From Acidobacteriota bacterium (lineage in GTDB: Bacteria; Acidobacteriota; Polarisedimenticolia; JAPUKU01), in contig JAPUKU010000045.1 in NCBI GenBank assembly GCA_027295505.1, positions 20,586 to 84,585 of the forward strand: 64,000 nt of DNA, written 5' to 3'. The notes under the pieces were generated by a model that did no database searches, was not told where the DNA came from, and saw nothing but the letters and a program-made list of their open reading frames with translations. The position numbers and the translations under genes were made by a program. Every line of letters begins with the position of its first letter. The stretch's first letter is position 1. Positions 4,732 to 40,244 of the stretch are shown here, in pieces.

Positions 4732-5709
4732 TCAGCGGGCGACGTGGGAAACGCGCCCGCGCTCCAGGGCTTCGCGAACCCGCTCTCCCACCTCCAGACA
4801 GGCCTGAAGCGCGCGCCGCCCCTGTTGCCCGTCGACCGAGGCTGGCCGGCCATCGCGGACCGCTCCCCAGAAATCCTGCAGTTCCAGGCCCAGAGGCTCA
4901 GCGCGCCGCACCGGCAGCGTACGGCTCACGATCTGCGGAAGGGCGCCCTTCTCGGGCCGGTCAAGGGCGTAATGCAGCACTTCCTGTTGGGAGTAATCGA
5001 GCGACAGGTAGCTCGTGGACTCGAACACCCTCAGCTTGCGCACCTTGCCGACGCTGATGCGGCTGGCCGTGAGGTTGGCGGCGGCTCCGTTGCGAAAGAC
5101 GATGCGGGCGTTGGCAATGTCGAGACGCGAACTAAGAGCCTGAACACCCACGGCATCGATACGCTCCACCTCGGAGCGCACCAGGTTGAGAACCACGTCG
5201 ATGTCATGGATCATGAGATCCAAAATCACGTCGATGTCCAGGCTTCGCGGCTGGAACGAGCCCAGACGGTGGGCCTCGATGAAGCGCGGATCATGGCACA
5301 CCTCTCGCAGCGCCGTCACGGCTGGATTGAACCTCTCGGTGTGACCGACCTGCAACAGCGCCCCTTTCCGTTCGGCAAGAGCAATGAGCCGATCCGCTCC
5401 ATCCAGAGCGGCGGCGATCGGCTTCTCCACGAGCACAGCCACACCACGCTCGAGAAGAGACGCCGTGACAATCTCATGATGCTCGGTGGGTACTGATACC
5501 ACGGCGGCATCCAGCTCGAGGCCGGGCAGATCTCTCACCGCGCAGGCCGGCGCACCGTAGCGTCCCGCAACCTCATGGGCGCGTGCGGAATCGGTATCCA
5601 CCACGCCAACCAGATCCACCTCAGGTGACGCGCTGCACAGACGCACCCGGTGCTCACCGATGTTGCCCGCACCGACCACGGCAACTCTGAGCTTGCGCAA
5701 CGCGGTCAC
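4732..5709 (-). CDS. Gfo/Idh/MocA-family NAD(P)-dependent oxidoreductase (possibly a GnnA-like UDP-GlcNAc 3-dehydrogenase)
   Basis: N-terminal Rossmann motif LRVAVVGAGNIGEHR and an EKP motif (VLVEKPIA); length 325 aa; its start overlaps the lpxA stop by 4 nt. Confidence 0.8.
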   Translation of the reverse strand: MTALRKLRVAVVGAGNIGEHRVRLCSASPEVDLVGVVDTDSARAHEVAGRYGAPACAVRDLPGLELDAAVVSVPTEHHEIVTASLLERGVAVLVEKPIAAALDGADRLIALAERKGALLQVGHTERFNPAVTALREVCHDPRFIEAHRLGSFQPRSLDIDVILDLMIHDIDVVLNLVRSEVERIDAVGVQALSSRLDIANARIVFRNGAAANLTASRISVGKVRKLRVFESTSYLSLDYSQQEVLHYALDRPEKGALPQIVSRTLPVRRAEPLGLELQDFWGAVRDGRPASVDGQQGRRALQACLEVGERVREALERGRVSHVAR

Positions 5710-6485
5710 CGTACCACTCCCCTCTTCGCGCCACGCATGAACTCCGCCAGGTAGCGGACCTCTTCGAAATTTTCGAGTTCCGCCGTCAGCTCAGCGAGCG
5801 ATTGATCGATCGGCAACCTCGAACGCACCAGGACCTGATAGGCCCGGCGCAAAGCCTTGACGGCGTCAGCGCTGAACTGCTTGCGCTTGAGCCCGATGAC
5901 GTTGATGCCGTGGGTCGAGGCACGGTTCCCTACCGTGAGCACGAACGGCAGGGCATCCTGCGTAACGACCGAATAACCGCCGATGTATGCGTGCCGCCCG
6001 ACCCTGCAGAACTGGTGCACACCCGAGAAGGCCCCGATGGTGGCATGATCCTCCACGACGACATGTCCCGCGAGCGTGGCGGCGTTGGCTAACAGCGTGT
6101 GGCTTCCGATCTGGCAGTCGTGGGCGATGTGCGTGTAAGCCATGAAGTAATTATGATCGCCAATGCGAGTCTCTCCCCCCCCGCCCTTCGTCCCGACATG
6201 GACAGTCATGAACTCGCGGAAAACATTGTCACGTCCAATGTGCAGGCGCGTGTGCTCACCCCGAAACTTGAGATCCTGGGGAGGTTGTCCGATTGAGGAG
6301 AAGGGGAAGAAGTGACAGCCTTCCTCGACTACCGTGTCACCCTGCAAGACAACGTGCGAATCAAGCCGACACCCACGCCCCAGGCGCACGCCTGCGCCCA
6401 CCTGGCAAACGGCTCCGATCTCGGTGTCTTCACCAAGTTCCGCTCCGGTCTCGACGATGGCACTGGGGTGTATGCGGGCGATCAG
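5706..6485 (-). CDS. lpxA: acyl-ACP--UDP-N-acetylglucosamine O-acyltransferase LpxA (start codon non-canonical or uncertain)
   Basis: Left-handed beta-helix hexapeptide repeats and LpxA-specific motifs (IGQPPQDLKFRGEHTRLHIGRDNVFREFMTVHVGT, HIAHDCQIG, GINVIGLKR). The in-frame sequence upstream of the first GTG (6401) encodes the conserved LpxA N-terminus ..[24 protein letters not shown], with no ATG/GTG/TTG before it. A CTG at 6483-6485 overlaps the fabZ TGA. Confidence 0.8.
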   Translation of the reverse strand: MIARIHPSAIVETGAELGEDTEIGAVCQVGAGVRLGRGCRLDSHVVLQGDTVVEEGCHFFPFSSIGQPPQDLKFRGEHTRLHIGRDNVFREFMTVHVGTKGGGGETRIGDHNYFMAYTHIAHDCQIGSHTLLANAATLAGHVVVEDHATIGAFSGVHQFCRVGRHAYIGGYSVVTQDALPFVLTVGNRASTHGINVIGLKRKQFSADAVKALRRAYQVLVRSRLPIDQSLAELTAELENFEEVRYLAEFMRGAKRGVVR

Positions 6486-6922
6486 GGCGTCCCCCCCTCG
6501 GCGAGCGCGGAGAGAATCTCCGCTTCCGCCACCAGCGAGCCATCCACGTACGCCCGGCCTTGCATCTTGGCGGCTCGAGAGCGAACCTTGAGCACCTTCA
6601 GCTCCAGACGAAGCTGATCGCCCGGGCGCACCGGTCGGCGGAAGCGAGTCTTGTCAATGCCTGTGAAATAGACGATGCGTCGCTTTTCTTCCGGCAAGCT
6701 GGACAGCAGAAGCACGGCGCCGACCTGGGCCATGGCCTCCACGACGAGCACCCCGGGCATCACCGGATGGCCCGGAAAGTGCCCCTGGAAAAACGGCTCA
6801 TTAAACGATACGGACTTGATCCCCACGGCGCTCTCGCCTTCACGGATTTCAATGATCCGATCCAGGAGCAGAAACGGATAGCGATGGGGCAGGATCTTCT
6901 GAATTTCCTCGACGTTCAGCAC
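6482..6922 (-). CDS. fabZ: 3-hydroxyacyl-ACP dehydratase FabZ
   Basis: 146 aa with hot-dog fold motifs: [36 protein letters not shown]. Confidence 0.95.
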
Positions 6923-6926
6923 GCGA

Positions 6927-7958
6927 TCACCCCTTCCTCCTCTTGCCCTTCACCGGCGCTAGTTTGCCTCGTAAGCGCCGCAATAGATCGGGCAGCCGAC
7001 TTAGTGCCGTGACGATCCGCTTCCACTCTCTGTGGTCGATGGCCGGGTGGCCAATGACAAACGCCCCCGGCGGCAGATCCCGCAGGACAGCGGACTTGGC
7101 GCCCACCCGGGCGCCGTCACCCAGGTTCAGGTGGCCGGCTGCGCCCGACTGCCCCGCCATGGCCACGTCCCGCCCTAGGCGTGTGCTGCCGGCCAGGCCA
7201 CTCTGTGCGGCCAGCGCGCAATGCTCACCGATTTCGACATTGTGCGCCACCTGAACAAGGTTGTCGATCTTGGTGCCACGGGCAATGCGCGTGGGACCGA
7301 GCGTGCCCCGGTCAATGGTCGTATTGGCACCGATCTCGACGTCATCTCCCACTTCTACCCAACCCACCTGCGGGATCTTGCGGTACTCCTCGCCCCGGCG
7401 TGCGAAGCCAAAACCATCGCTTCCGAGGACCGCACCCGCGTGCACGATGACTCGATTTCCGAGAACCGTGCGCCGATAAAGGGTTGCGTTGGGGCACACA
7501 ATCGTGTCCTCACCGATCCGGCATCCGTCTCCGATCACCGCGCCGGACTGGATCTGTGCCCGGGCGCCGACATGGCATTCCCGCCCCAGTACGGCGCCCG
7601 GTTGAATCGTCGCCTGCGGATGGACCGAGCAGTCCGCACCGATTTTCGCCTGCGGATCGATGCCAGCAGCCACCCTCTCAGGGGGATGAAAAATCTCCAG
7701 CACTTCCGATAAGGCCAGATAGGGATCCTCAACCCGGAGAAGGTTGCGGCCGGACAGGCTGCCGCGCTTGGACACCAGCAGAGCACCTGCACGGCTTTCT
7801 CCAGCCCGGCGAGAGTAATCGGCCCGTGCCACGAAAGCCATATGCTCGGGACCGGCATCCTGCAGCGTCCGCACCCCCTGGAGCTTCAGGCCAGAGTCGC
7901 CCTCCACCTCGCCCCCCACCTGGTTGGCGATCTCGCCGAGCGTGATCGAACGCTCCAA
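6927..7958 (-). CDS. lpxD: UDP-3-O-(3-hydroxyacyl)glucosamine N-acyltransferase LpxD
   Basis: 343 aa with an N-terminal LpxD domain plus hexapeptide repeats; sits between skp and fabZ as in the canonical cluster. Confidence 0.9.
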   Translation of the reverse strand: MERSITLGEIANQVGGEVEGDSGLKLQGVRTLQDAGPEHMAFVARADYSRRAGESRAGALLVSKRGSLSGRNLLRVEDPYLALSEVLEIFHPPERVAAGIDPQAKIGADCSVHPQATIQPGAVLGRECHVGARAQIQSGAVIGDGCRIGEDTIVCPNATLYRRTVLGNRVIVHAGAVLGSDGFGFARRGEEYRKIPQVGWVEVGDDVEIGANTTIDRGTLGPTRIARGTKIDNLVQVAHNVEIGEHCALAAQSGLAGSTRLGRDVAMAGQSGAAGHLNLGDGARVGAKSAVLRDLPPGAFVIGHPAIDHREWKRIVTALSRLPDLLRRLRGKLAPVKGKRRKG

Positions 7959-7969
7959 ACCCGCTTTCC

Positions 7970-8524
7970 TCAGTTGGCCTTGGAGGCGCTCTGTGCGGCG
8001 GCGTTCAGCCTGCTGACGATGAGATCGGTAATGTCCACGCTGGGAGATACAAACGCCACCGCCGCGCGATCGAGGATGAGGGAGTAGCCTGCTTGCCGGC
8101 CCAGCGTTTCAATGACCTCGAGAACTTTTTTCTGAAACTTCTGTTCTATGTCTGAAACCTGCGCCTGGACCGCTCGATTGGCGTCGTCCCGGACACGCTT
8201 GAGCTCGATGCCTTTCTGCTGCATCTCCCGTTCACGCTCGCTGCGGCGGTCCTCGCTCAGGCTGGGCTCCTGCTGCCGGAACATCTCCTGAAGAGCCCTG
8301 AATTCCTCCTCCTTCTTCTGAACCTCGCCACGCTTTGCCTTGGTGAGGGACTCAATCTCAGATCGCATTTCCTTACCGATCTGGCTGAGCTCGAATACTC
8401 GCGCCGGATCGAAAACACCGATCTTCGAGGCCTCACCAGCCTGGGCCAGAATGTCGCTCGATCCGGCCCCTAGCCAGAGTCCTGCCAGCACGGCGGCTGC
8501 CGCACAGGCTTTCGATGGTCTCAT
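7970..8524 (-). CDS. skp: periplasmic chaperone Skp (OmpH)
   Basis: Signal peptide (MRPSKACAAAAVLAGLWLGA) followed by a long coiled-coil, Lys/Glu/Gln-rich region; located immediately downstream of bamA. Start set at the ATG at 8524. Confidence 0.8.
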   Translation of the reverse strand: MRPSKACAAAAVLAGLWLGAGSSDILAQAGEASKIGVFDPARVFELSQIGKEMRSEIESLTKAKRGEVQKKEEEFRALQEMFRQQEPSLSEDRRSEREREMQQKGIELKRVRDDANRAVQAQVSDIEQKFQKKVLEVIETLGRQAGYSLILDRAAVAFVSPSVDITDLIVSRLNAAAQSASKAN

Positions 8525-20664: not shown

Positions 20665-21900
20665 TCAGGAGCGGGGCGTCGGGGCCAGCGGCCTGGCGGG
20701 GTCGAGTTGTTCACGGCGCAGGAATTCGGCGATCTCCGATTCCTGTTGTTCCCACTGGAACAGGAAGATCACACCGATTTCGTAGCGCGGAGCTGGAGGG
20801 GTCACTTCCAGTTCCTCAACCCGGACCACGCGCGCCTGCACTGTGAGGGTCGCACCACCATCCGAGCTCGTACAGACGATCTGCAGGACCTGTCCGAGAG
20901 GGTACGCGGTGTCACTCTCAAACAACATCCCACTGCGGGATATGTTCTTGGCCTGCAATCCTGAATCGGCGGGACCGGGAGCGACTGAATCCAGCGCCTG
21001 CACGCTGAACTTGCGCCGGCGGGTGTCGAAGCGGATATAGTCGCGCTTCTCACGGAAGAAAACGCTGACCCGGTTCTTGCCTCTTGCCTTGGCCTGATAA
21101 AGTGCCTCAGCAGCGGCCAGAATCAGTTTTTCGCCCACCCCCGCATCCGAGGGGTACTCCGCGATCCCTGCTGACAGCGTCAGGCGGACTGCTTTCCCGG
21201 CGTGCTCGCGGCGCAGGAAGTGCTGCTCAACCGCCGAGCGGATGCGCTCGCCAACCACGTAGGCCCCCATGCGCTCCGTTTCTGGCAACGACACCAGGAA
21301 CTCCTCACCACTCCAGCGTGCCGCCACGTCGATGTCCCGCACCTTGTTCTTGATGAGCACCGCGACCTCCTTGAGCAGCAGATCGGGAACGGCATGGCCG
21401 AACCGTTCACGCAGGTAGCGGAAATTGTCGATGTCAAGGTAAAGCAACGAAAAGACCAGACCGAAGCGCTTGCAGCGCCTGAGCTCGGTACGCAGACATG
21501 TACGGAAGAAATGCTGATTGTACAGGCCCGTTAACCAGTCGTTGCTGGCCGTACGCTGAGCGTGCTCGTACATCCCGAGCTCGATGATCTTGGGGCTCAC
21601 AATTCTGCGGTTGATGTTCATGAAGTAATCGAACACCGCCAAGCGCACCCCGACCGGGCGCCCTGTCTGGCGACGGAGCTGAACATGGTGCCGGAGAATC
21701 GCCTCCCAGTGCTGACGGGCCTCTTTCTGATCGAAAGAGATCTGGGTCAGCGAGAGGAGCAGAGCTGAGTGGGCCGGGATTCCCTTTTCGGCGCAGATGT
21801 GGTCGAGCTCCTCTAGAACGCGGTTCGCGTTGTGCATGTCCTCGTCCAGCAAGTCCAAGAGCTGCTGGCGGATCTGGGCGGGATCGTGGGTTTCAATCAT
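20665..21900 (-). CDS. diguanylate cyclase (GGDEF, SGEEF variant) fused to a C-terminal PilZ domain
   Basis: GGDEF domain with an I-site RDID and an SGEEF signature. C-terminal PilZ motifs (RFDTRRR..., NISRSG), preceded by an unknown N-terminal domain of about 130 aa. Confidence 0.8.
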   Translation of the reverse strand: MIETHDPAQIRQQLLDLLDEDMHNANRVLEELDHICAEKGIPAHSALLLSLTQISFDQKEARQHWEAILRHHVQLRRQTGRPVGVRLAVFDYFMNINRRIVSPKIIELGMYEHAQRTASNDWLTGLYNQHFFRTCLRTELRRCKRFGLVFSLLYLDIDNFRYLRERFGHAVPDLLLKEVAVLIKNKVRDIDVAARWSGEEFLVSLPETERMGAYVVGERIRSAVEQHFLRREHAGKAVRLTLSAGIAEYPSDAGVGEKLILAAAEALYQAKARGKNRVSVFFREKRDYIRFDTRRRKFSVQALDSVAPGPADSGLQAKNISRSGMLFESDTAYPLGQVLQIVCTSSDGGATLTVQARVVRVEELEVTPPAPRYEIGVIFLFQWEQQESEIAEFLRREQLDPARPLAPTPRS

Positions 21901-22121
21901 GGCTGTGGACGCGCGTCTATATTTAATGCGCGCCCAAGCCAGCGTCAAACTCGACAGGATGGCCAGCGTAGGTTTTTTTCCACAGAGTGGTAATTTTTTT
22001 GACAGGGGGCGGTGCCAGGACTATATTAGGTCACGCGCCGTCGTAACCTACGGTGTCTATGGGAGTTGTTCCCACAACCCCGTGGGTTCAGGCGGCCAGC
22101 CCAGGTAGGAGGATGCCAATT

Positions 22122-24185
22122 ATGCCCACCGGTCTCGGAATTCTCAACGTCATCGGCGAAATGCAGGACTTGCGGGGATTCCGCGAGCAGCATTGGGAAG
22201 GCGGCTTCGAGGAATACCTGGATATTGTCCAGAAGCATCCCGAGGTCGCACGCTCCGCGTTCCAGCGCGTCTACGACATGATCCTCGCGAAGGGCACCCG
22301 GGAATACTTCGAGTACAAGAAGAAAATTATCCACTACAACTTCTTCGATGATCCGGACCGTGATGGCAGGGACGCGGTCTACGGCCTCGACATCCCTCTC
22401 ATGAAAATGGTCAACATCTTCAAGGCTGCCGCCAACCGCTACGGCACCGAAAAACGAGTGTTGCTGCTGCACGGTCCGGTCGGCTCGGCGAAGAGCACGA
22501 TTGTGCGCCTGCTTAAGAAGGGTCTCGAGGACTACACGCGCACGCCCGAAGGCGCCCTGTACACGTTTCGCTGGATGCTCGAGGACACCGGCGGCCGCAA
22601 GGCCACCGCCGATATTCATGAGTTTCCGTGCCCCATGTTCGAAGATCCGCTGCACCTCATTCCGTCCGAGAGCCGGCAGAAAGTGCTGGATATGCTCAAC
22701 CACAACCTGCCTCCCGAGCGGCGCGTCGTTGTGGCCGGAGACCTTTGCCCCGCATGCCGGCAATACTTCAAAGAGTTCAACCTGCGCTACAACGGTGATT
22801 GGATCAAGATCATTCAGCACATTCGCGTCCAGCGGCTGACCCTGAGCGAGAAGGACCGCGTGGGCATCGGCACCTTTCAGCCGAAAGACGAAAAGAACCA
22901 GGACTCGACCGAGCTCACCGGCGACATCAATTACCGGAAGATCGCTGAGTACGGATCGGATTCGGACCCGCGGGCGTTCAACTTTGACGGAGAGTTCAAT
23001 GTTGCGAACCGCGGCCTCGTCGAATTCATCGAGGTCCTGAAGCTCGACGTGGCTTTCCTATATGACCTGCTCGGCGCCTCTCAGGAGCACAAGGTCAAGC
23101 CCAAGAAGTTCGCCCAGACCGACATTGATGAGGTCATCATTGGCCACACGAACGAGCCAGAATACCGCCGGCTCCAGAACAATGAGTTCATGGAGGCCCT
23201 GCGTGACCGCACGGTCAAGATTGACGTGCCCTACATCACCAAACTCGACCAGGAGGTTAAGATCTATCTGAAGGACTACTGCCCCGACCGCATTCGTGGC
23301 AAGCACATAGCCCCTCACACCATTGAGATGGCAGCCATGTGGGCAGTCCTCACTCGTCTGGAAGATCCGAAGAAGGCCGACCTGACCCTGCTGCAGAAGC
23401 TCAAGCTGTATAACGGCAAGACACTCCCCGGCTTCACCGAGGACAACGTCAAGGAGCTCAGAAAAGAGGCGCAGCGCGAGGCCATGGAGGGCATTTCGCC
23501 GCGCTACATTCAGGACAAGATTTCCAATGCTCTGGTCTCGGAACGCGGCGACGGATGCGTCAACCCCTTCATGGTGCTGAACGAGCTGGAGAGCGGACTC
23601 CGCCACCACTCCCTGATCAACAGCGAGGACGTGCGCAAGCGTTACCGCGACCTTCTGCAGGTGACCAAGCAGGAGTACGAGGACATCACCAAGAACGAGG
23701 TCCAACGCGCCATTTCGGCCGACGAGGAGTCGATCTCGCGCCTGTGCGGCAACTACATCGACAACATCAAGGCCTACACGCAAAAAGAAAAAGTGCGTAA
23801 CAAGTACACCGGCCAGGACGAGGAGCCGGTTGAGCGCCTGATGCGGTCAATCGAGGAAAAGATCGACATCCCGGAGAATCGCAAGGAGGATTTCCGCCGG
23901 GAGATCATGAACTACATTGGCGCTCTGGCGGTCGAAGGAAAAACGTTCAACTACCGCACGAATGAGCGCCTGCACAAGGCTCTCGAGCTCAAGCTCTTCG
24001 AGGATCAGAAGGATTCGATCAAACTCACCAGCCTGGTCTCCAGTGTCGTCGACCGCGACACCCAGGAGAAGATTGACGTCGTCAAGGCGCGGCTCATCAA
24101 GGATTACGGCTATTGTGAGGTCTGCTCCACCGACGTCCTCAACTACATCGCCAGCATCTTCGCGCGTGGCGACGTGAAGAGCTGA
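22122..24185 (+). CDS. prkA: PrkA-family AAA+ serine protein kinase
   Basis: Collinear with PrkA/YeaG ([24 protein letters not shown]; Walker [12 protein letters not shown]). I preferred the ATG at 22122 because AGGAGG lies 9 nt upstream of it. Confidence 0.9.
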
Positions 24186-24207
24186 GGGGGAGACCTCTCG
24201 TCCTGCA

Positions 24208-25310
24208 ATGGCGCTCCGGATCGACCAGGACCATAACCGCTTTCGTCAGATCGTCCGCGGCCGCATCAAGCGTGACCTCAAGAAGTACATCACGCACAGC
24301 GAGCTGATCGGACGTCGCGGCAAAAATCTCGTCAGCATTCCCCTGCCCCAGATCGATATTCCTCATTTCACCTTCTCCCCCCACCAGCGCACAGGCGTCG
24401 GCCAGGGAGAGGGCGAGGTCGGCACCGTGCTCGGTTCTGGTGAGCCGCAGGACGGCACCGGCAAGGCCGGTGATGCTCCCGGCGCACACATCCTGGAGGT
24501 GGATGTCACGCTCGAGGAACTGGCCAGGATTCTTGGAGAGGAACTGGAACTACCCGACATTCAGAATCGCGGCACCAAGAACATCGCCTCCGACAAAGAC
24601 CGTTACACGGGAATTGCCCGCTCGGGCCCCGAATCCCTGCGGCATTTTCGCCGCACGTACCAGCAGGCGCTCAAGCGGCAGATTGCCGCCAACCTGTACG
24701 ATCCCACCAACCCGAAGATCATCCCCATCCGGGAAGATCGCCGATACCGATCCTGGAAGGTGTCCAAGCAGCCGCAGAGCAACGCGGCCATCATTTACAT
24801 GATGGACGTATCCGGCTCCATGGGTGATGAACAGAAAGAGATCGTACGTATTGAATCGTTCTGGATCGACACTTGGCTGCGCTCCCAGTACAAGGGAATC
24901 GACGTGCGCTACATCATCCATGACGCGGAGGCACACGAGGTCGATGAGGAGACATTTTTTCACACTCGCGAGAGCGGCGGCACGGTGATAAGCAGCGCCT
25001 ACAAACTCTCCGAGCAGTTGATCCAGAAGCACTACCCTCCCGGCGAGTGGAACCTGTATCTTTTCCACTTCAGCGATGGTGACAACTGGTCGCAGGGCGA
25101 TACGGAGGAGTGCGTACAGCTCCTGCGTGAACGGCTTCTCGCCGCGGTAAATTTGTTCTGTTACGGCCAGGTAGAAAGCCCCTACGGTACGGGGCAGTTC
25201 CTGGTCGATCTCAAGGACGTTTTCAAGGATGAGGAGAAGGTGGTTCTCTCGCAAATCGAGAACAAAGAGGCCATCTACTCTTCGATCAAGGAATTCCTGG
25301 GGAAGGGTAA

Positions 25311-25314
<4 letters not shown>
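24208..25314 (+). CDS. yeaH: YeaH/YhbH-family protein (DUF444, vWA-like)
   Basis: DUF444 hallmarks and the conserved middle position in the prkA-yeaH-spoVR operon; its stop overlaps the spoVR start in an ATGA arrangement. Confidence 0.85.
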
Positions 25315-26801
<1,487 letters not shown>

Positions 26802-26811
26802 GGCGCGATCC

Positions 26812-28539
26812 ATGAACGAGACCCGCCTCCTGCCGACGCCCCGATCCCTGGTGACTGCGAACCCGCCCCCGGCGGCTCCCGGGTTCGGCAGTCCCTCCGC
26901 GGCGACCCAGACCAAGGGCCGAGAGTACCGCAAGGTCAACACCTGCCGTCTGATCGCTTTCGCGAGCGGCAAGGGTGGGGTGGGCAAGAGCCTGCTGGTG
27001 GCGAATCTTGGCATTCAGCTCGCGCGCCAGGGCCGGCGGGTGACCCTCATTGATTGCGACGTGTTGAGCTCCACCCTCCACTCCTATCTGGGAACCGTGT
27101 GCTCAGGCAGCGGCGTGGATGAGGTTCTGGGTGGTAATTCAACTCCCCTCCGCTCCCTGGCGCGTGACACCTCGGTACCCTACCTGCGCCTAATCTCCGG
27201 ACCACGGAATCGCGCTAGAGCCCTTCCTTCAAGAGAAGTTTTGCAGTCGCTGGCCCTCGAGGCCCGCGAATTGGCCTCTGATTTCGCGATCTTTGACCTG
27301 CCCTCGGGAATGCACCCCTTCAGCCTAGATGTCTTCAGCCTTGCTGACGGCGGCGTGCTAGTGACCACGGCCGAACCGGGGTCTCTGGAGGGCGCTTTCC
27401 ATTTCGTGGAGGAGCTGGGCAAACGCCGTCTCGACGAGATGGAGTCTGACATCCGGTGTGCGGTCGAAGCAACGCTGGGCAGCTCGGCGCTCGAGCGAGG
27501 GACGGCTTCCTGCCTCGACGCGCTGGCCGAGATCGATCCCGGTCTGGTGAACCGGGTCGCCGCCCGCCTCGCCGGGCTTCGCCTGTCTTTCGTCGTGAAC
27601 CAGGTGCGGGCCGATGCCGAGGCTCAGGCAGCTCTCAACCTGCGCAGCCTGTGCCGGCACTACCTGGGGGTGGAAGTGGAGTTTACTGGAGCGGTTGAAT
27701 ACGATCTGTCCGCCTGGCAAGCCACCCGGCAGCGCAAGTCACTTTCACAGAAGTATCCGAATGCCTCGGCCACACGCAGCATCGAGCAGATGGCCGCTCT
27801 CCTCTCCTCGCGCACGGGTCCAGAGCCGGGCTCAGAACCCCGCTGGATACGCCTGGCTGAGCGCACGCACTACCAGATCCTCGAGGTGCCGCCCTCGGCC
27901 TCCCAACGCGACCTGCAGCGCGCCTACGACCGCCTACAGGCAATCGCCTCCCCCGGGATCGAGCAGCTTGGAGGTGCCATCCACAGCGAGAGGGTCAAGG
28001 CGGTGCGCTCGCGGATCGAGAACGCCCACCGCACTCTTGTATTTCTCGAACCCAGGAGGGGATACGACCGCAGCCTCGTCGCGGCCGGCATCCTGCGATC
28101 TGAGGAGTTGCGTGATCTCAGGCTCGAACTGAACGAGCCGCCCCCTCCCAAGCCCGTGGAAGGATCCTCACCCACCAGGACTCCGGACAGGAGCATGGGA
28201 AAAACCAAGAAGCGGCGGGCCGACACGGATGAGTCGCTCGAGGAAGAAGCGGCACCCCCTGCCACCTCCGGCACCCCACTTGCCTACACCGGGGCCGTCC
28301 TGGCAGCCCTGCGGCGTGAGCACGGCCTCAGCCTCGAGGCCATCGGGGCGGTGACCAAGGTGCGGATCATCCACCTGCGCTACCTCGAGGAAGAGCGCTT
28401 TGGGTCCCTGCCAGCGCTCATCTTCCTGAAGGGATTTGTGAGGGAGTACGCCCGCTGCCTGAAGCTCGATCCCGACCGTGTGTGGCAGGATTACCGGACG
28501 CGATTCGAAAACTGGAAGCGCAGCCGCAGCGAGGACTGA
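26812..28539 (+). CDS. ParA/MinD-family P-loop ATPase fused to a degenerate J-like segment and a C-terminal RodZ-type helix-turn-helix
   Basis: Deviant Walker A IAFASGKGGVGKSLLVANLG. Residues about 360-400 read HYQILEVPPSASQRDLQRAYDRLQAI, a J-domain-like helix pair lacking HPD. After a Pro/acidic linker the C-terminus reads LSLEAIGAVTKVRIIHLRYLEEERFGSLPALIFLKGFVREYARCLKLD (an HTH of the RodZ N-terminus / XRE type). Starts 10 nt after the spoVR stop. Confidence 0.7.
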   Translation: MNETRLLPTPRSLVTANPPPAAPGFGSPSAATQTKGREYRKVNTCRLIAFASGKGGVGKSLLVANLGIQLARQGRRVTLIDCDVLSSTLHSYLGTVCSGSGVDEVLGGNSTPLRSLARDTSVPYLRLISGPRNRARALPSREVLQSLALEARELASDFAIFDLPSGMHPFSLDVFSLADGGVLVTTAEPGSLEGAFHFVEELGKRRLDEMESDIRCAVEATLGSSALERGTASCLDALAEIDPGLVNRVAARLAGLRLSFVVNQVRADAEAQAALNLRSLCRHYLGVEVEFTGAVEYDLSAWQATRQRKSLSQKYPNASATRSIEQMAALLSSRTGPEPGSEPRWIRLAERTHYQILEVPPSASQRDLQRAYDRLQAIASPGIEQLGGAIHSERVKAVRSRIENAHRTLVFLEPRRGYDRSLVAAGILRSEELRDLRLELNEPPPPKPVEGSSPTRTPDRSMGKTKKRRADTDESLEEEAAPPATSGTPLAYTGAVLAALRREHGLSLEAIGAVTKVRIIHLRYLEEERFGSLPALIFLKGFVREYARCLKLDPDRVWQDYRTRFENWKRSRSED

Positions 28540-30501: not shown

Positions 30502-33156
30502 CTACTTGTGGATCGTGATGTGGTTCTTTCCTTCGCGCTTGCTCTGGTAGAGGGCCCTGTCGGCGTTCTCTATGAGGACTCCCTTGGTTTCTCCGTTCGA
30601 CACCGTGATCCCGGCGCTGAAGGTGATCTGCAGGGGGGCAGGATTTCTACCAACGCTCGACACCTGCATTCTTTCGACTGCGATGCGCAGCCTCTCGAGT
30701 GATTTCGCCGCCAGAGAAAGCTCCGTTTCCGGATAAATGATAGCGAACTCCTCACCGCCATAGCGGGCCACAACATCGGTGGTACGCACCATGGTCAGCA
30801 ACAACCGGGCGAGGGCCCTCAGCACGATGTCACCGGTTTGATGTCCATACTGGTCGTTGATCGGCTTGAAGTTGTCGAGATCAAAAAGAGTCAGACAGAA
30901 CGGCTTCTTGTAACGCGCGAACCGGTTGATTTCGTAGTCGAGCCGCTCCTGGAAGAACCGGTGATTGTAAAGGCCTGTGAGTCCGTCTCGCAGCGCCAGA
31001 TCCTGGTTCACCTTGGCACGCTCGAGCCTGGACACCACCCTTGCCACCAGTTCCTCCGGCAGGAACGGCTTGGTGACATAATCATCCGCTCCCGCCCGCA
31101 GGGCCTGCACCTTGTCGTCCAGCTGGGTTCGCGCGGTGACGAAGACGACCGGTATGAGCTGCAGCTTCGGATTGGAGCGGATAGTGGACAACAGCTTGCG
31201 ACCGTCCATGTCAGGCAGCATGATGTCGAGGATGATGAGGTCTGGCACGTGATCGCGGACGAAATCCAACGCCTCCGATGCGCTGAAGGCGGAGTAGGTG
31301 TCACAGCCGGCTCGGTTGAGGCTGGCCTTGATGGCCTTCTGCGTGACCTGCTCATCGTCCACCACCATCACCAGGGGACGCTCCCCCGTGCGCACGGCGG
31401 TCTCAGGCACCGCGTGGGTGAACAATGTGTTGCGCAGATGTTTCTCCCGTCCCATGACTCGGGTCGCTTCATACGTCCCCACGCGTAGGCTGGCTGCGAT
31501 CCACTGCAGGCACTCCTGCGCTTCGGACAGAATGCTCTCGGAGCCGATGGGCGGCACGGCTGATTCGAGGAGGTTGTTCATCGCCACCTCGAACAGCTTG
31601 CCGAGAGTCGAGAGCTCCGGGTAACCGCCAATGGGACCGCTGCCTGCAAGGAAATGCGCGGCGCGTTGAATGGTGCGGGCCCGGTCTCGAATGGGCTCCC
31701 GTGGATCGATATTCCCCACAGGTTTCAGGCGGTCGCTGATCTCAGCGATGAATGCCTCCTTCAGGACCTGCGCTTCCTCCGCGGAGAGCTCGCTCAAGCT
31801 CGCTGAGGAAGTCTCCATACTCGGTTCTCGCCGGGCGGCTCCGGTATCCGGCACCTGGATCAGCCCATCACTGCCACAGCTGGCGAGGTGCACTCCACCT
31901 GCTTCCGCCGATTTCGCCCGTTCTAGCGCGTCGCGCGTGGCCGAGAGAAGATCCTGCCGGGTCGAGGCAGTCTCGGGACAACCGGCTACGCCGGACGACA
32001 AAGTGACGCTGGGCAAGTTTGAGCCGCGGATGATCGCATGAACCTTCATCAGCATTCTCTTCATGACGCTCGCGGCCGACACCAGGTTCGTCTGGCACAG
32101 GAGGATCCCGAATTCCCCGCCGGAGAGCCAGGCGGCGAGGTCGGTGCGCCGGACCTGCCCACGAAGTTCCTGACCGACGCGCTGCAGGATCTCGTCCGCA
32201 GCTTCGAAGCCAAAGGCATCGCTGACGCGCTCCAGCTGATCGATGTTGATGAGGGCCACAGCAAATGAGGATTTGTAGCGTTCGTGCCGGGCCAGCTCTG
32301 TGCTCAGGAGTTCGTCAAACGACCGCTTGGTGGCGATGCCGGTGACTGGATCCCGCAGCGCAATTTCCTGAAGCCGGGTGGAGCGTTCGATGCGCGAAGC
32401 CACCCGGGCGACCAACTCGTCGGGATGGAACGGCTTGGTGATGTAGTCGTCGGCCCCGCCCCGAAAAGCATCCAGCTTCTCCTCCAAGCCTTTCCTGGAG
32501 CTCACGAAGACCACCGGAGTCCCCACGTGATAAGGATCGCGGCGGATCCTGCGCACGAGGCGGGGTCCGCGGATGTCGGGCAGATCGACATCCATGATGA
32601 TCAGCGCCGGCCGGTGCGAACGGAGCCGTTCCAGGGCCTCGCGGCCCCCCATGCAGGAAGTGGCCACGAAACCGGCGTTCTCCAGCGCTCCGCAGATCAG
32701 CTTCTGCGAAGTGGGATTACTGTTGATGACCAGGACGTGTCGCGTCGTGTGGTCGGCTTTCGGCGTTATCTTGCGGAGCGCCCTCTGAAGCGGCCCCCCC
32801 AGGTCGTCGATCTTCTCGCGACTCCACTGCATGGGTGAGTCGCTCTCTGAGAGAACGCGCAGGATGCGTCGAACCTTCTTCGCCAGGGCAACCGTCGGCC
32901 TCAGGGTCTGCTCTGCGATGCTACCGCTCAGATCCTTGAGAGAAGCTCCGAGCTCGAACAGCTCGGTGCGGTGCCCTCCGGCCATGATCTCGAGCTCGGC
33001 CCCGACGCGGTACAAGGCGTCCAGGCAAGTGGAAGGAATGATCGACGAGGCAGGGATATCGTGGAGAAGATTCGCAGCCTGCCCCGCCAGGTCCAGAGTC
33101 TGGGTGGCGGTAGGTGCCATCCCCACTAATCTTGTCGAATGACCTTCATTCGTCAA
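30502..33156 (-). CDS. multidomain c-di-GMP signalling protein with tandem duplicated HPt-like-REC-GGDEF modules (first GGDEF degenerate)
   Basis: Two REC domains (DVDLPDIRG..DYITKPF and DIMLPDMDG..DYVTKPF). Two GGDEF domains: the first reads RRTD..LSGGEFGIL (GGEF, one acidic residue missing), the second RTTD..RYGGEEFAII (canonical). HPt-like segments precede each REC (..GGHRTELFELGASL.. and ..AAHFLAGSGPIGG..). Confidence 0.8.
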   Translation of the reverse strand: MTNEGHSTRLVGMAPTATQTLDLAGQAANLLHDIPASSIIPSTCLDALYRVGAELEIMAGGHRTELFELGASLKDLSGSIAEQTLRPTVALAKKVRRILRVLSESDSPMQWSREKIDDLGGPLQRALRKITPKADHTTRHVLVINSNPTSQKLICGALENAGFVATSCMGGREALERLRSHRPALIIMDVDLPDIRGPRLVRRIRRDPYHVGTPVVFVSSRKGLEEKLDAFRGGADDYITKPFHPDELVARVASRIERSTRLQEIALRDPVTGIATKRSFDELLSTELARHERYKSSFAVALINIDQLERVSDAFGFEAADEILQRVGQELRGQVRRTDLAAWLSGGEFGILLCQTNLVSAASVMKRMLMKVHAIIRGSNLPSVTLSSGVAGCPETASTRQDLLSATRDALERAKSAEAGGVHLASCGSDGLIQVPDTGAARREPSMETSSASLSELSAEEAQVLKEAFIAEISDRLKPVGNIDPREPIRDRARTIQRAAHFLAGSGPIGGYPELSTLGKLFEVAMNNLLESAVPPIGSESILSEAQECLQWIAASLRVGTYEATRVMGREKHLRNTLFTHAVPETAVRTGERPLVMVVDDEQVTQKAIKASLNRAGCDTYSAFSASEALDFVRDHVPDLIILDIMLPDMDGRKLLSTIRSNPKLQLIPVVFVTARTQLDDKVQALRAGADDYVTKPFLPEELVARVVSRLERAKVNQDLALRDGLTGLYNHRFFQERLDYEINRFARYKKPFCLTLFDLDNFKPINDQYGHQTGDIVLRALARLLLTMVRTTDVVARYGGEEFAIIYPETELSLAAKSLERLRIAVERMQVSSVGRNPAPLQITFSAGITVSNGETKGVLIENADRALYQSKREGKNHITIHK

Positions 33157-33422
33157 CCGGATACGGCTTTAAGAACTTGTAGTCAATTACATGACATGGA
33201 AGGAGTTACACCCTTCTGCTGACTGGATCTCAAAAACGACCCGGTGCACCGGCACCCTTCAGGGCCGTTCCGGCGCAGGATCCGCTGGAGGCAGGCAAGT
33301 CATTTATTTTTAGTGGCTTAGGGCCATCCGTCCGGTGAGGATGGCCGCGGGGTCCAGGCGGACATCCCGAAACCTTCAAGCCTCCAACGGACACCGCCCG
33401 GATTTCAGGCGGGTGGATGGAA

Positions 33423-36656: not shown

Positions 36657-38021
36657 TTAGCGGGGAATATTGATGCCGTATGATTTGATCTTGCGGTGCA
36701 GATGACTGCGTTCGAGCTTGAGGACGCGGGCCGCACGCGTGATGTTCCAGCTGTTGTCTTCCAGCGTGCGCTGGATCAGCTCGCGCTCGAAGCGCTCCTT
36801 GCCTTCCCGGAGCGATAGCGGCCGGCCACTATTGCCACCGGCCCGGGCCGGATCTTCTCCACGCAGGCCGGCCGGAAGATCGGATATACCGATCTCGTCG
36901 TGCGGCACCATGATGACGAGCCGTTCGACAACGTTCTTGAGCTCACGCACATTTCCTGGCCAGCGATATGCCTTGAGCGCCGCCAGAGCCGGCGCCGAGA
37001 AATCTTTCGGCCGGCGGCCATATTCCTGGGCGAACTCCCCGGCAAAGTGTTCGGCCAGCAGGGGCACATCACTGACCCGGTCGCGGAGCGACGGCACCTG
37101 GATGGGAATGACCGCCAGGCGAAAGTAGAGATCCTCGCGGAAGCGCCCCTGGTGAATCTCCTCCTGCAGATCCTTGTTGGTGGCCGTGAGCACGCGCACG
37201 TCCACCTGTATGGAGGATGCGCCTCCGACGGGCTCGAACTTCTGCTCCTGCAGCACCCTGAGAACCTTGGCCTGTGTGCGCAGGCTCATGTCCGCTATCT
37301 CATCCAGAAACAGGGTACCGCTGTCCGCCAGCTCGAACTTCCCCTTCTTGTCGTGCACCGCACCGGTGAAGGAGCCTTTGACGTGGCCGAACAGCTCGCT
37401 TTCGATCAGCTCTTCCGGGATGGCGGCGCAGTTCATTTCTACGAACGCTTCCTCGGCACGCAGGCTGGTACCGTGAATCATGCGAGCCACGAGCTCCTTG
37501 CCGGTCCCGTTCTCGCCAAAGATGAGCACACGTCCGTTCGTGGGCGAGGCCCGCCGGATCTCCTCCCTCAATCTCTCGATCTTGCTGCTCTTGCCGATGA
37601 GGGTATGCCGGCGTTGCAGTTGCTCACGCAGCACGCGATTGCGCGCCTCGAGGAGACGCTGCTTGAGGGCGTTGCGCAGCACGAGCACGGTCTTTTCGAG
37701 TGACAGAGGTTTCTCAACGAAATCAAACGCACCGAGCTTGGTCGCGCGCACCGCCGTCTCGATATTACCGTGTCCCGACATCATGACCACGGCCGCATCC
37801 ATGCCTCGCTGCCGTAGTTCACGAAGCGTCTCGAGCCCGTCCATTTTGGGCAGCCATACATCCAGCAGGACCGCATCGCACGGTTTGCGCTCGTAAGCTT
37901 CCAGGCACTGCTCGCCGCTCTCCGCAACTTCCACCTTGTAGCCCTCATCGAGCAAAACACCGCGCAGCGATGAGCGCACTCCCGCTTCATCATCAACAAT
38001 TAGGATGCGCTCGCCTGCCAT
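36657..38021 (-). CDS. ntrX: sigma54-dependent response regulator, NtrX/NtrC type (REC-AAA-Fis HTH)
   Basis: REC (ILIVDDE..DVWLPKMDG), a sigma54-interaction AAA+ domain (GENGTGKE, GAFTGA-like, ESELFGH), and a C-terminal HTH (ITRAARVLKLERSHLHRKIKSYGI). Confidence 0.85.
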   Translation of the reverse strand: MAGERILIVDDEAGVRSSLRGVLLDEGYKVEVAESGEQCLEAYERKPCDAVLLDVWLPKMDGLETLRELRQRGMDAAVVMMSGHGNIETAVRATKLGAFDFVEKPLSLEKTVLVLRNALKQRLLEARNRVLREQLQRRHTLIGKSSKIERLREEIRRASPTNGRVLIFGENGTGKELVARMIHGTSLRAEEAFVEMNCAAIPEELIESELFGHVKGSFTGAVHDKKGKFELADSGTLFLDEIADMSLRTQAKVLRVLQEQKFEPVGGASSIQVDVRVLTATNKDLQEEIHQGRFREDLYFRLAVIPIQVPSLRDRVSDVPLLAEHFAGEFAQEYGRRPKDFSAPALAALKAYRWPGNVRELKNVVERLVIMVPHDEIGISDLPAGLRGEDPARAGGNSGRPLSLREGKERFERELIQRTLEDNSWNITRAARVLKLERSHLHRKIKSYGINIPR

Positions 38022-38024
38022 CCG

Positions 38025-40244
38025 TCAGCCCTGCACCGGGAGATCGATGACGAACGTCGTGCCCTGCGGCACGTTGGCGCGCACGTGGATGGCTCCATTG
38101 TGGTCGGAAATGATGCGATCGACGATTGCCAGACCGAGACCGGTCCCGCGGTTCTTGGTGGAGAAGTAGGGCATGAACAGGCGTTCACGATCTTCTGGAG
38201 GAATACCGGGGCCGGTGTCGCTGACCTCAACCCGAACCACCCGAGGGTCCTTCAGGTAGCAGGTACCGATGAGCACCTGGCCCTGTCCGTTCATGGCCTC
38301 GATGGCGTTGTCGATCAGGTTGATGAACACTCGGCGCATCTGCTCAGGATCGACGTGCACGGCGGGAGTCTCACCATTGTCTCGGCGGACGATCGAAAGG
38401 TCTGTGCTGCGCCCATTGTAATGAGCCAGCGCCTCATCGATCACAAGGCCGAGATCGACCGGTACCGGCTGCACATGGGGCATTTGCGCAAAACGCGTGA
38501 AGGCGTCGACGAGGCTCTTGAGCGAATTGACCTCACGCACGATGCTGGCACTTCCTTCCTCGACGATCTCACCCAGCCGGGGACTCTTCTCGCGCCACTT
38601 CTTGCGAATGCGCTCCGCCGACAGCTGGATGGGCGTGAGCGGGTTCTTGATTTCATGTGCGATGCGGTGTGCGACTTCCCGCCAGGCGGCGAGGCGCTGG
38701 CCCTTGATGAGATCGGTGAGATCTTCCAGCACGATGAGCATACCCAGGTAACTGCCCTGGCCGTCATCGAGCTGAGAGAGGTGGGCAGCCGCAGTAACCG
38801 TTCGCCCCCCACTGACGAAGCGCAGCTCCCGCTCCAGCGAGGTCTTGGCTCCCGACTGAACGCTCTCGATGGCTTCGCCAAGGCCTTTCAGATCGGCACT
38901 TCCCTGCTGCAGGATCTCCGCCGGTTTGTTGAGGATGGCTCCGCGGCGCGGCAGTCCCAGAATGCGGTGTGCAGCGCGATTGATGGTGCTCACCCTTCCC
39001 TGGCGGTCCAGCGAGATGACGCCCGTGGTGATGTTTTCGAGAAGGATCTCGATGTAGCGGCGGCGCTCCTCGAGGGCCTGGTTGATTTCGTTGAGTTCGC
39101 GGCTGCGCTGGTCAATGGTTTCCCGGTTGCCCCGCAGCTCCTCGGTCATGGCGTTGAATGAATCCACCAGGATCCCGAGCTCGTCTCCGGCTTCCACTTC
39201 AACCTTGTAGTTGAGGTTGCCCGAAGAGATTTCACGCGTGCCGTGAGCAAGCATCTGAATGGGCACCGTGATGCGCTTGGACAGGTACAGGCCGATCCAA
39301 GTCACCGAGAATAGGATGATCAGGGTCACGAGCGCGAACGCGAACGTGTATAGGCGCTGGATGTTTGACTTCTGGGCTTTGTTCTGGCGGTAGTTCTCGC
39401 TCGCACGGCTGATGCGCGAAGTTAAACCCATCAGATCCCGCGAAACCCGGTAGCCGGCCACTAGCACGCCCTGGGCCGGCTCGCCGGGCTTGAGAGAGGC
39501 GATGGGCACGCCATAGCGCACCAGTTGTGAACCGCTATGCGAATTGATCCACCCAAACGGCTCCCCCGCCAGGGCTTTGTCGATCAGGTTCTGGGGAAGC
39601 TGCTCGATCGAGTCCACCGGGATACGCGGATCCAACACAACCAGTGGCTCTCCTCCACCCACGTAGACACCGATGAAGTCGAGGCCATACTGCTTGAGAC
39701 GGCGCTTGAGCCAGCGCCCGAGATAGCGGCGGTTCTCTCCCAAGAGGCCGTTTTCCGCCGCCAGCCTGCTTGTACGCTGTGCGAAGTGGGCTGCGCGCTG
39801 CCTGACGTCGTCGTAGTAGGCGTCCACGACCTCCTGCGAGTACTGGGTGACCTCATCCACAGGGGTGCTGAACCACTTGTCCACGCTCGACTGGATGAGA
39901 TGGAGGGCGGCCAGGAATATCAGCAGGGACGGCAGCAGCCACAGGGCCAGCAGTGTGAACACAACCTTCGTCTTGAACTTGGCGCCGAGAATGTTGCGCT
40001 TGCGCTCCACCAGCAGCTTGATGAGGTTGCGGAAAAGGATGAACAGGAAGGTGAGTATGAGGATGGCATTGGTAATGCCCAGAAACGACAGCAGCACCGA
40101 GTTTGTGAGGTAGGGCCAGCTAAAATCCTCGGTCTTCTGGAGGAAAAAGTAGATGGCCGAAACAACCAACACCAGAATCGCCACTCCGAGCAGGAGCAGG
40201 CGATCGGTGTTCAGTCGCGGACGGCTACGGCTGGATCGGCTCAT
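38025..40244 (-). CDS. ntrY: sensor histidine kinase, NtrY type
   Basis: Multi-TM N-terminus, HAMP, PAS, an H-box ([20 protein letters not shown]) and a HATPase_c domain ([33 protein letters not shown]); lies upstream of ntrX. Confidence 0.85.
   Translation of the reverse strand: [739 protein letters not shown]

Follow-up and report, generated by a model that had tools for sequence, protein, structure and literature searches.

A tandem REC-GGDEF protein of an Acidobacteriota bacterium: a predicted diguanylate cyclase fused to a degenerate, putatively c-di-GMP-sensing copy

Dimerization is required for GGDEF cyclases to work, and they are off when their product cross-links two domains back-to-back. 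The window analyzed here, a 64,000-nt stretch of a contig from an Acidobacteriota bacterium, encodes on its reverse strand one chain with two REC-GGDEF units, and only the second unit carries the canonical cyclase residues. The question raised by this locus is what the degenerate unit does beside its intact paralog. In the ORF list, the maximal reading frame spans 30502..33156 (reverse strand, 884 codons, TTG start), and the initial annotation took it for an 884-aa protein. The frame was confirmed, but the length was not: the equivalent of M13 is the start in all orthologs and in the NCBI entries MEE9231401.1 and MCZ6777732.1 (each 872 aa), and the ATG at 33120 is therefore the likely start. 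Residue numbers follow the 884-aa numbering. The features of the gene are listed below; all dN/dS values come from one sequence pair with small counts.

30502..33120, reverse strand: probable coding sequence, 872 aa, ATG at 33120 (M13)
32740..33120, reverse strand: N-terminal five-helix domain, aa 13-139, predicted fold CheA-P1/HPt-like
32401..32736, reverse strand: REC1, aa 141-252 (Pfam E = 3e-25, 89 bits; dN/dS 0.25)
31903..32361, reverse strand: GGDEF1, aa 266-418, degenerate (Pfam E = 2e-30, 106 bits)
32110..32151, reverse strand: primary I-site R336-R-T-D339 and signature S345-G-G-E-F349, read from the sequence
31795..31881, reverse strand: inter-module linker, aa 426-454, of low conservation in the alignment (dN/dS 0.84)
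31402..31794, reverse strand: HPt domain, aa 455-585, with Hpt as its sole Pfam family match and an invariant His
31654-31656, reverse strand: phospho-acceptor candidate His501, motif AAHFLAGSG, predicted helix B
31036..31371, reverse strand: REC2, aa 596-707 (Pfam E = 1e-30, 106 bits)
30520..30996, reverse strand: GGDEF2, aa 721-879, canonical (Pfam E = 9e-47)

The protein belongs to a very rare family, found here in five lineages of 42-90% identity; the 90%-identical ortholog, P0002, falls in the lineage of the window protein. Public entries of the family are labeled just "diguanylate cyclase".

Pfam located a Response_reg and a GGDEF stretch in both modules, i.e. REC-GGDEF twice, in agreement with the domains first proposed. 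When the two REC-GGDEF units were compared with each other, they showed 40% identity over 255 aa (E = 3e-57), and both modules aligned end to end with DgcR, the alpha5 extension (the coiled-coil linker of DgcR) included. In a neighbor-joining (NJ) tree, whose outgroups were drawn from word-indexed searches and are incompletely sampled, the module 1 and module 2 clades were each supported at 100% and were grouped together at 77%; the two clades had an identical internal branching order, and their nearest neighbors were the Hpt-REC-GGDEF proteins P0006-8. The word-indexed search missed known family members, as the HPt-region profile returned nothing and the module 1 query omitted members. By phmmer, the top matches of module 1 beyond its own orthologs were the module 2 units of the family (180-233 bits), and the sampled outgroups reached at most 152 bits. 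Given the identity of the halves and their grouping in the tree, an ancestral duplication of the REC-GGDEF unit is supported by sequence comparison. The homology claimed for the two whole modules thus stands for REC plus GGDEF, but it was not detectable between the two helical domains, for which hhalign gave a probability below 1%.

The second module has the residues of a working enzyme. GGDEF2 matched Pfam PF00990 with 159.3 bits against a gathering cut-off of 23.8, and its sequence (FDLDNFKPINDQYGHQTGD ... GGEEF ... SKREGKN) contains the signature and the metal/GTP residues: DxDxFK..IND..GH..GD, R748, and R791-T-T-D794 followed after 5 residues by G800-G-E-E-F804. These canonical residues align with those of PleD and DgcR and are invariant in the family, as is the RTTD..GGEEF arrangement that had been read as canonical. 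The best reading is that GGDEF2 is a predicted active diguanylate cyclase and that module 2 is the working enzyme. REC2 likewise has the full set of receiver residues (D600, D601, D644, T674 and K696), and these too are invariant in the family.

In GGDEF1, the domain fold is still present (106 bits) and the residues of an active cyclase are not: LE stands in place of FK, VSD in place of IND and GF in place of GH, and W occupies the position of the R that precedes the signature. The loss of FK and GH extends to all five lineages, and that of the guanine-binding Asn is confined to the window/P0002 lineage. The initial annotation had described the signature as GGEF with one acidic residue missing. 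The degeneration is real, but it is not a deletion; in the gap-free alignment to DgcR, SGGEF fills the GGEEF positions by substitution (G to S and E to G). Across the five lineages the signature is xGGEF (SGGEF here, NGGEF or AGGEF elsewhere), and RxxD is retained in both modules of each. The RRTD motif lies where it had been placed, with five residues between R336-R-T-D339 and S345-G-G-E-F349. In addition, R293 on helix alpha0' of GGDEF1 aligns with the secondary I-site residue R163 of DgcR, as does R748 of GGDEF2 (positions mapped by hand from HMMER alignments to DgcR and the numbering of PMC8041772), and this Arg is conserved as R-Y across the family. The dN/dS ratio of GGDEF1 was the lowest of any domain (0.06, from the single pair and small counts), compared with 0.09 for the HPt domain, about 0.25 for REC1 (0.25) and the N-terminal domain, and 0.84 for the linker, which points to strong purifying selection on GGDEF1. 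The proposal of a degenerate first GGDEF that keeps its I-site was borne out, and GGDEF1 most likely binds c-di-GMP.

Degenerate GGDEF domains also act as c-di-GMP receptors in PopA and PelD. In SgmT of Myxococcus, a GGDEF domain with RxxD but no catalytic signature is reported to serve as a c-di-GMP receptor (PMC3509222). None of these proteins has a second GGDEF, and the degenerate domain signals to a kinase, a protease adaptor or a glycosyltransferase, whereas GGDEF1, a putative c-di-GMP binder, shares its chain with an intact cyclase paralog.

A guide to the function of the whole units is DgcR of Leptospira biflexa (6zxb, 6zxc, 6zxm), which resembles module 1 with E = 1.7e-32 and module 2 with E = 1.7e-51 over the entire REC-alpha5-GGDEF length. 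In DgcR, the GGDEF pair is repositioned by phosphorylation and is inhibited when dimeric c-di-GMP cross-links the two domains back-to-back (PMC8041772). Module 2 shares the catalytic residues, RxxD and the secondary Arg with DgcR, and the same logic would be expected. DgcR, however, is a 300-aa homodimer, whereas two non-identical units, one of them predicted to be catalytically dead, share one chain here and are each preceded by a five-helix bundle; the score of the NCBIfam DgcR equivalog (325.6) was below its cut-off of 500. Among relatives with a solved structure, PleD of Caulobacter crescentus (REC-REC'-GGDEF, 1w25) scored best against module 2 (E = 3e-57). PleD, too, carries a duplicated, degenerate signaling domain (the adaptor REC', with a structural/allosteric role), and it is subject to product inhibition through its I-site. 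It differs in that the receiver alone is duplicated, with one GGDEF and without an HPt, and the NCBIfam PleD-family score was 376.6 against a cut-off of 474.

A His-bearing, HPt-like helix had been proposed in front of each REC domain, and this was supported before REC2, whereas the His before REC1 was not. Pfam Hpt (PF01627) was the only family matched by the domain at aa 455-585 in every family member, with 15.1 bits (E = 0.03; gathering threshold 24.6) in the window protein and 14.1, 17.2, 21.7 and 34.1 bits in the orthologous domains, the last of which (L085) is above the threshold. The motif H501-F-L-A-G505 is invariant in the five lineages and common to the Hpt-annotated P0006-8. The AF2 model of the domain (pLDDT 87.8) has a P1-like five-helix predicted fold, and the top 7 Foldseek matches of this model were CheA P1 domains (TM up to 0.64, probability 0.98-1.00), with other HPt proteins ranked next. 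When shallow profiles of both helical regions were searched against PDB sequences, only chance matches were returned (terminase, interferon; E > 0.1). Since His501 is invariant, one ortholog exceeds the Pfam threshold and the model fits CheA P1, the region before REC2 is supported as a genuine HPt domain by sequence and predicted structure. Its similarity to CheA P1 (1i5n, 3kyj) includes the position of the His motif on helix B; the motif itself, H-F-L-A-G, differs from the common H-x-x-K-G, and the Ala is again common to P0006-8.

The N-terminal domain gave a different result. Its His62 (GGH62RTELFELG) is replaced by R in the 90%-identical ortholog and by A, T or Q in the others, and the prediction places it in the loop that joins helices B and C. 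The domain has no other conserved His across the family, no Hpt profile match was obtained in four orthologs even at E<=10, and the comparison of the domain with the family HPt domain is the one that remained below 1% in hhalign. The N-terminal His is thus not supported as the phosphotransfer site it had been taken for, and the domain, which is family-specific and constrained, may be a degenerate HPt.

An Hpt relay that ends on a REC-GGDEF cyclase is known from Anabaena, where CdgK acts on CdgS (PMC9927289). The HPt domain of CdgK, like that of most phosphorelays, is located on the kinase or is free, whereas here it stands at the N-terminus of an output response regulator. No description of an Hpt-REC-GGDEF protein was found in the literature searched, although such proteins are present in databases (P0006-8), and the present protein offers an uncharacterized example of an HPt fused to an output regulator, not to a kinase.

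The reading that we prefer, with a probability of roughly 0.55, is a tandem REC-GGDEF cyclase in which module 2 would be fed by its HPt domain and activated by phosphorylation, and module 1 would be a non-catalytic, c-di-GMP-sensing copy. From the computed architecture, duplication, residue status and selection pattern, we infer the phosphotransfer steps, the binding of c-di-GMP and a cross-link in cis as follows. An (HPt-)REC-GGDEF unit would have been duplicated in one chain, and the copies would then have diverged asymmetrically. His501 would accept the phosphoryl group that a kinase encoded elsewhere carries on its receiver and hand it to Asp644 of REC2; no partner kinase was found nearby, and the sole histidine kinase of the window, NtrY-like and non-hybrid, is paired with its own NtrX. 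Phosphorylated REC2 would let GGDEF2 pair with a second GGDEF2 and produce c-di-GMP, as in DgcR, PleD and WspR, and because there is one catalytic GGDEF per chain, this pairing would have to involve another chain. GGDEF1 would make no product and would keep both halves of the allosteric site, RxxD and the alpha0' Arg. Intercalated c-di-GMP dimers may cross-link GGDEF1 back-to-back with GGDEF2 of the same chain, which is the most economical mechanism and would provide built-in product inhibition, or sensing that is independent of a second subunit. REC1 of the window lineage and the His-less N-terminal domain of predicted HPt fold look like pseudo-signaling domains kept for structure. A natural single-chain heterodimer of this kind, with a live and a dead GGDEF that both have the cross-linking residues, would separate the catalytic from the allosteric role, which is hard to do with the homodimers DgcR, PleD and WspR.

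A somewhat unlikely alternative is that the modules are independent and that module 1 is a PopA/SgmT-like effector unrelated to the regulation of GGDEF2, with protein-protein interaction or localization through REC1 and the N-terminal bundle as its output. The receptor role of degenerate GGDEF domains with an intact I-site is established, as for SgmT (PMC3509222), but in the present family both GGDEF domains retain complementary primary and secondary I-site residues, as partners would. The long linker is probably flexible, and its near-neutral ratio (0.84, from the one pair) suggests loose coupling; all five lineages nevertheless keep the two modules fused, and none has a split version. The family-specific, constrained N-terminal domain would suit a separate output, yet no free-standing module-1-type gene was found except for one 124-aa N-terminal-domain fragment.

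It is unlikely that the phosphoryl group passes through the chain itself, from an ordinary histidine kinase to Asp189 of REC1, then to His501 and to Asp644 of REC2, so that GGDEF2 is switched on and GGDEF1 acts as a c-di-GMP gate. The order REC1...HPt...REC2 fits an Asp-His-Asp relay, P0008 has an analogous REC-output-HPt-REC-GGDEF order, and none of the family members has a hybrid kinase gene in its vicinity. The state of REC1 bears on this directly. REC1 keeps the phospho-acceptor D189, S219 and K241, and the complete site (DD, D, S, K) is present in P0004, P0046 and L085, but in the window protein and P0002 the Mg-binding pair is N145-S146 at the position of D600-D601 in REC2, a change that the initial annotation did not mention. 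Loss of the acidic pair in a receiver domain should severely impair phosphorylation. Although the fold is present, REC1 here lacks this part of a phosphorylatable receiver, and a full His-Asp-His-Asp form of the intramolecular relay proposed at first is unsupported in this protein because the pair has changed from DD to NS. Furthermore, REC1 is a paralog of the output-type REC2 and, like REC2, extends as a coiled coil into the GGDEF of its module, and the unconserved N-terminal His would have been the first step of the relay. Relay receivers are reported to carry a FATGUY-type motif (PMC9981736), and no such signature was found in the REC1 sequence. REC1 may still signal, given the three residues kept, the DD pair in three lineages and its dN/dS of 0.25 in the pair compared.

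Very unlikely is a further variant, in which one chain forms a complete signaling circuit, with an ordinary kinase as the phosphoryl donor of REC1, and c-di-GMP at the GGDEF1 I-site gates a REC1-to-HPt-to-REC2 relay that was rewired in the window lineage to an outside-fed HPt; if it were true, product feedback would act on phosphotransfer and not on catalysis. That module 1 is a decaying relic of the duplication with no function of its own is hardly credible: the catalytic residues of GGDEF1 are gone, as are the acidic pair of REC1 in the window lineage and the His of the N-terminal domain, and module 1 branches are longer than module 2 branches in that lineage of the NJ tree, but dN/dS is lowest in GGDEF1 and, in REC1 and the N-terminal domain, well below the linker value, xGGEF and RxxD are kept across lineages just 42-50% identical, and P0001, P0002, P0004 and P0046, the members without interruptions, all have an open module 1 frame.

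The family shows a stepwise formation of pseudo-domains: GGDEF1 has degenerated in every lineage, REC1 in that of the window alone. The literature on tandem or double GGDEF proteins that was found concerns GGDEF/EAL proteins or homodimers only. The protein is a rare variant of a well-known enzyme class, not a fundamentally new one, and the practical impact is modest, in that the annotation of a rare Acidobacteriota family is refined.

Several further records were examined. P0044, considered as a gene cut by a contig end, was identified as the opening piece of a full-length gene that carries frameshifts; the L085 gene is broken only by frameshifts, and its record name suggests a long-read contig. 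A metagenome scan with the HPt region returned the P0046 contig only, and the matches of a genome-contig scan, for which generic REC peptides were used as patterns, were ordinary response regulators with no family member among them. The long-span loci L007, L008, L017, L061, L071 and others were rejected as tandem modules, being adjacent separate genes. The N-terminal-profile matches P0045, P0047-49 and P0051 (4-7 matched stretches) were judged spurious, and P0045, when fetched, was a TPR-like repeat protein.

Upstream of the gene, one further feature was noted:

33243..33256, reverse strand: terminator-like hairpin with a T-run, between the upstream aminotransferase gene and the duplicated-cyclase gene

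A scan of the region with the terminator consensus gave 7 sites where 3.6 were expected, so the hairpin is weak evidence that the gene has a transcription start of its own. The neighboring genes vary between lineages and are not conserved. A PatA_N/DUF4388 gene was considered as a conserved partner and rejected: the window has no copy (no match in tblastn), nor do the P0002 and L085 loci, and only at P0004 and P0046 does such a gene stand immediately upstream, with 55% identity between the two copies.

The target gene is located on the minus strand of the window, and its open reading frame (30502..33156) comprises 884 codons with TTG as the first codon. The orthologues and the public entries (MEE9231401.1 and MCZ6777732.1, both titled 'MAG: diguanylate cyclase [Acidobacteriota bacterium]') are all 872 aa long and start at the equivalent of M13; therefore, the CDS is likely to be 30502..33120. 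Residue numbers follow the 884-aa protein. When the protein was scanned with Pfam in pieces, two Response_reg and two GGDEF stretches were found, in agreement with the REC-GGDEF repeat described in the initial annotation:

aa 141-252, REC1 (E=3e-25)
aa 266-418, GGDEF1 (E=2e-30)
aa 596-707, REC2 (E=1e-30)
aa 721-879, GGDEF2 (E=9e-47)

The top NCBIfam matches were the PleD and DgcR equivalogs, each under its own cut-off.

In a BLASTP alignment of 255 residues (E=3e-57), which spanned REC and GGDEF with no large gaps, the two halves were 40% identical. Beyond its own orthologues, module 1 (REC1-GGDEF1) found its best phmmer matches in the module 2 units of the family (180-233 bits), and all sampled outgroup REC-GGDEF units scored <=152 bits. 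In a neighbour-joining tree of REC-GGDEF units (100 bootstraps; outgroups drawn from word-indexed searches and incompletely sampled), the module 1 and module 2 clades each received 100% support and their union 77%, and the two clades had identical internal branching. Taken together, the alignment, the phmmer ranking and the tree support the proposed homology of the halves and a duplication in the family ancestor. The closest tree neighbours were three Hpt-REC(-REC)-GGDEF proteins outside the family (P0006-P0008). In one of them, P0008 (649 aa), the domains run REC-wHTH(OmpR)-HPt-REC-GGDEF, so that a single chain holds an HPt between two response regulators, a layout parallel to REC1-GGDEF1-HPt-REC2-GGDEF2; the terminal GGDEF of P0008 appears degenerate (..WGNGEF..).

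The tandem architecture is very rare, and the following members were found:

window protein with its near-identical cluster
P0002, 90% identical
P0003, C-terminal fragment, 77% identical
P0004, about 50% identical
P0046, 861 aa
L085 copy, 5613-8192, full-length, fifth lineage, called as three genes (P0044 is the first fragment)

The frame of the L085 copy shifts near 6665 and again near 7740, hence the three calls; these two frameshifts could be long-read or assembly indel errors or could mark a real pseudogene; the record name hints at a long-read assembly. This copy is followed, 2.5 kb downstream, by three bactofilin genes. When 1.84 billion representatives were scanned exhaustively by HMMER with the N-terminal profile, just nine matched, namely the query cluster (P0001), three relatives of this domain (P0044, P0046 and P0050) and five that look spurious. 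No further lineage was found in scans of species-representative genomes and JGI metagenomes. Word-indexed homologue searches with sub-regions or their profile missed the query's own family, and their negatives were not counted as evidence.

The region between the modules (aa 455-585) scored 15 bits against Pfam Hpt, under the 24.6 threshold, and Hpt was the sole family matched by this region in each family member; P0046 reached 21.7 bits and L085 34.1 bits, the latter over threshold. The motif H501-F-L-A-G was invariant and common to the Hpt-annotated P0006-P0008. In the AlphaFold2 model (pLDDT 87.8), five helices form a bundle and His501 sits on helix B; Foldseek ranked CheA P1 domains first and other HPt proteins next. 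On profile, motif and predicted fold, the region is accepted as an HPt domain, as had been claimed for the segment ahead of REC2; it is of a subtype with Ala at position +3 from the His instead of the usual Lys.

The corresponding claim for a His-bearing helix before REC1 was not borne out. No Hpt profile match was obtained in the N-terminal domain (aa 13-139) in 4/4 orthologues, and no profile-profile similarity to the family HPt domain was detected (hhalign probability <1%). At position 62, the 90%-identical orthologue has Arg and the others A, T or Q, and H62 itself lies in the loop that joins predicted helices B and C. The domain was modelled as a five-helix bundle with pLDDT 79.4, based on three input sequences and with five models spanning 42 to 79. 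From this model a degenerate, His-less HPt is plausible; given the promiscuous matching of helical bundles, it is not demonstrated. With Hpt-bearing neighbours in the tree, such a domain would be the parsimonious outcome if an entire HPt-REC-GGDEF unit had been duplicated.

GGDEF2 has the canonical motifs, unchanged throughout the family (DxDxFK, IND, GH, GD, R791TTD794 and G800GEEF804). The signature of GGDEF1 is S345GGEF349 in the target and NGGEF, AGGEF or SGGEF in other lineages, GG[DE]EF being absent from all of them; a gap-free alignment with the Leptospira biflexa cyclase DgcR showed that G is replaced by S and E by G, with no deletion. GGDEF1 has lost the FK and GH motifs in all lineages and, in the window lineage, also the guanine-binding Asn and the Arg preceding the signature. 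RxxD is retained in both modules of all lineages, so the description of GGDEF1 as degenerate with its I-site kept stands. R293 (module 1) and R748 (module 2) align with R163 of DgcR, its secondary I-site Arg (PMC8041772). REC2 has the complete phospho-acceptor set. REC1 retains D189, S219 and K241; for its acidic pair, P0004, P0046 and L085 have DD and the window protein and P0002 have N145-S146, a change that the initial annotation of two REC domains had missed.

Nei-Gojobori dN/dS values were calculated for the window and P0002 genes, a single sequence pair with small counts (dS about 0.22-0.35):

GGDEF1, 0.06
HPt, 0.09
GGDEF2, 0.14
REC2, 0.16
N-terminal domain, 0.24
REC1, 0.25
inter-module linker, 0.84

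The strongest constraint in this pair thus fell on the degenerate GGDEF1, which, within the limits of one pair and small counts, would exclude its simple decay.

By homology with DgcR, PleD and WspR, module 2 would be a phosphorylation-activated cyclase whose REC2 is fed by the fused HPt. Since each chain has one catalytic GGDEF, catalysis would require two chains. Module 1 would supply no catalytic half-site, while retaining both I-site halves under strong constraint; most economically, GGDEF1 may bind c-di-GMP and cross-link with GGDEF2 in cis, so that the chain would carry its own partner for product inhibition or sensing. We put the probability of this combined reading at roughly 0.55. Its computed part comprises the architecture, the duplication, the residue status and the selection pattern; every phosphotransfer step, the binding of c-di-GMP and the cis cross-link are inferences. 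GGDEF domains that are degenerate but keep an I-site are well established as c-di-GMP receptors, and independent modules, with module 1 a PopA/SgmT-like effector, are an unlikely but possible arrangement. An internal relay from REC1 through the HPt to REC2, a trimmed form of the one proposed initially, could operate in lineages with DD; in the window lineage the N-S pair compromises it, and REC1 lacks relay-type hallmarks, which makes this route rather improbable. That module 1 is a decaying relic is very improbable, as dN/dS counts against it.

All of the domains belong to well-known families; what is new is the whole duplicated unit within one chain with asymmetric degeneration, and the fusion of the output regulator with an HPt. 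No description of a tandem REC-GGDEF x2 or Hpt-REC-GGDEF protein was found in the literature searched. In the characterised Anabaena relay, Hpt is carried by the kinase CdgK (PMC9927289), whereas here it is carried by the output regulator. The protein is of moderate relevance to c-di-GMP and two-component specialists.

The neighbourhood of the target gene contains:

downstream, same strand, 54-nt gap, MATE transporter
downstream, same strand, thioesterase
upstream, class-III aminotransferase
33256-33243, terminator-like hairpin between the aminotransferase and target genes
36657-40244, minus strand, NtrY-like HAMP-PAS histidine kinase and NtrX-like sigma54 activator, two genes and about 5 kb upstream

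The NtrY-like protein, the sole histidine kinase in the 64-kb window, is paired with NtrX and, being non-hybrid, does not stand out as a phosphoryl donor to the HPt. The neighbour genes are syntenic in P0002 and different in P0004, P0046 and L085; with this kinase and these unconserved neighbours, the target protein is thus an orphan that has no evident kinase partner nearby. Only the P0004 and P0046 loci have a PatA_N/DUF4388 (PATAN) gene, with a product of ~515 aa, immediately before the tandem cyclase gene:

L001 (P0004 locus) 283-1824, 2 nt gap
L084 (P0046 locus) 730-2289

The two proteins are 55% identical and may be a lineage-specific partner; no homologue was present in the window or at the P0002 or L085 loci.

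Another c-di-GMP gene is located 9 kb from the target (20665-21948, minus strand) and encodes a 427-aa protein joining a cyclase-type GGDEF (aa 135-293, 7e-39) to a built-in PilZ receptor domain (aa 313-411, 1.3e-9), with a variant RDID+5+SGEEF signature and partly degenerate FK/IND (DIDNFRYLRERFGH); its first ~130 aa carry no domain assignment. The gene is divergent from a three-gene cluster (22053-26801, plus strand) of PrkA (AAA + PrkA C-terminal domain), DUF444 (YeaH-like) and SpoVR-like genes, a conserved stress/starvation-associated operon type. At 26812-28539 (plus strand), a 575-aa fusion is encoded, in which a long low-complexity linker joins a ParA/MinD-type P-loop ATPase (aa ~46-300) to a C-terminal RodZ-type helix-turn-helix (HTH_25, aa 497-557).
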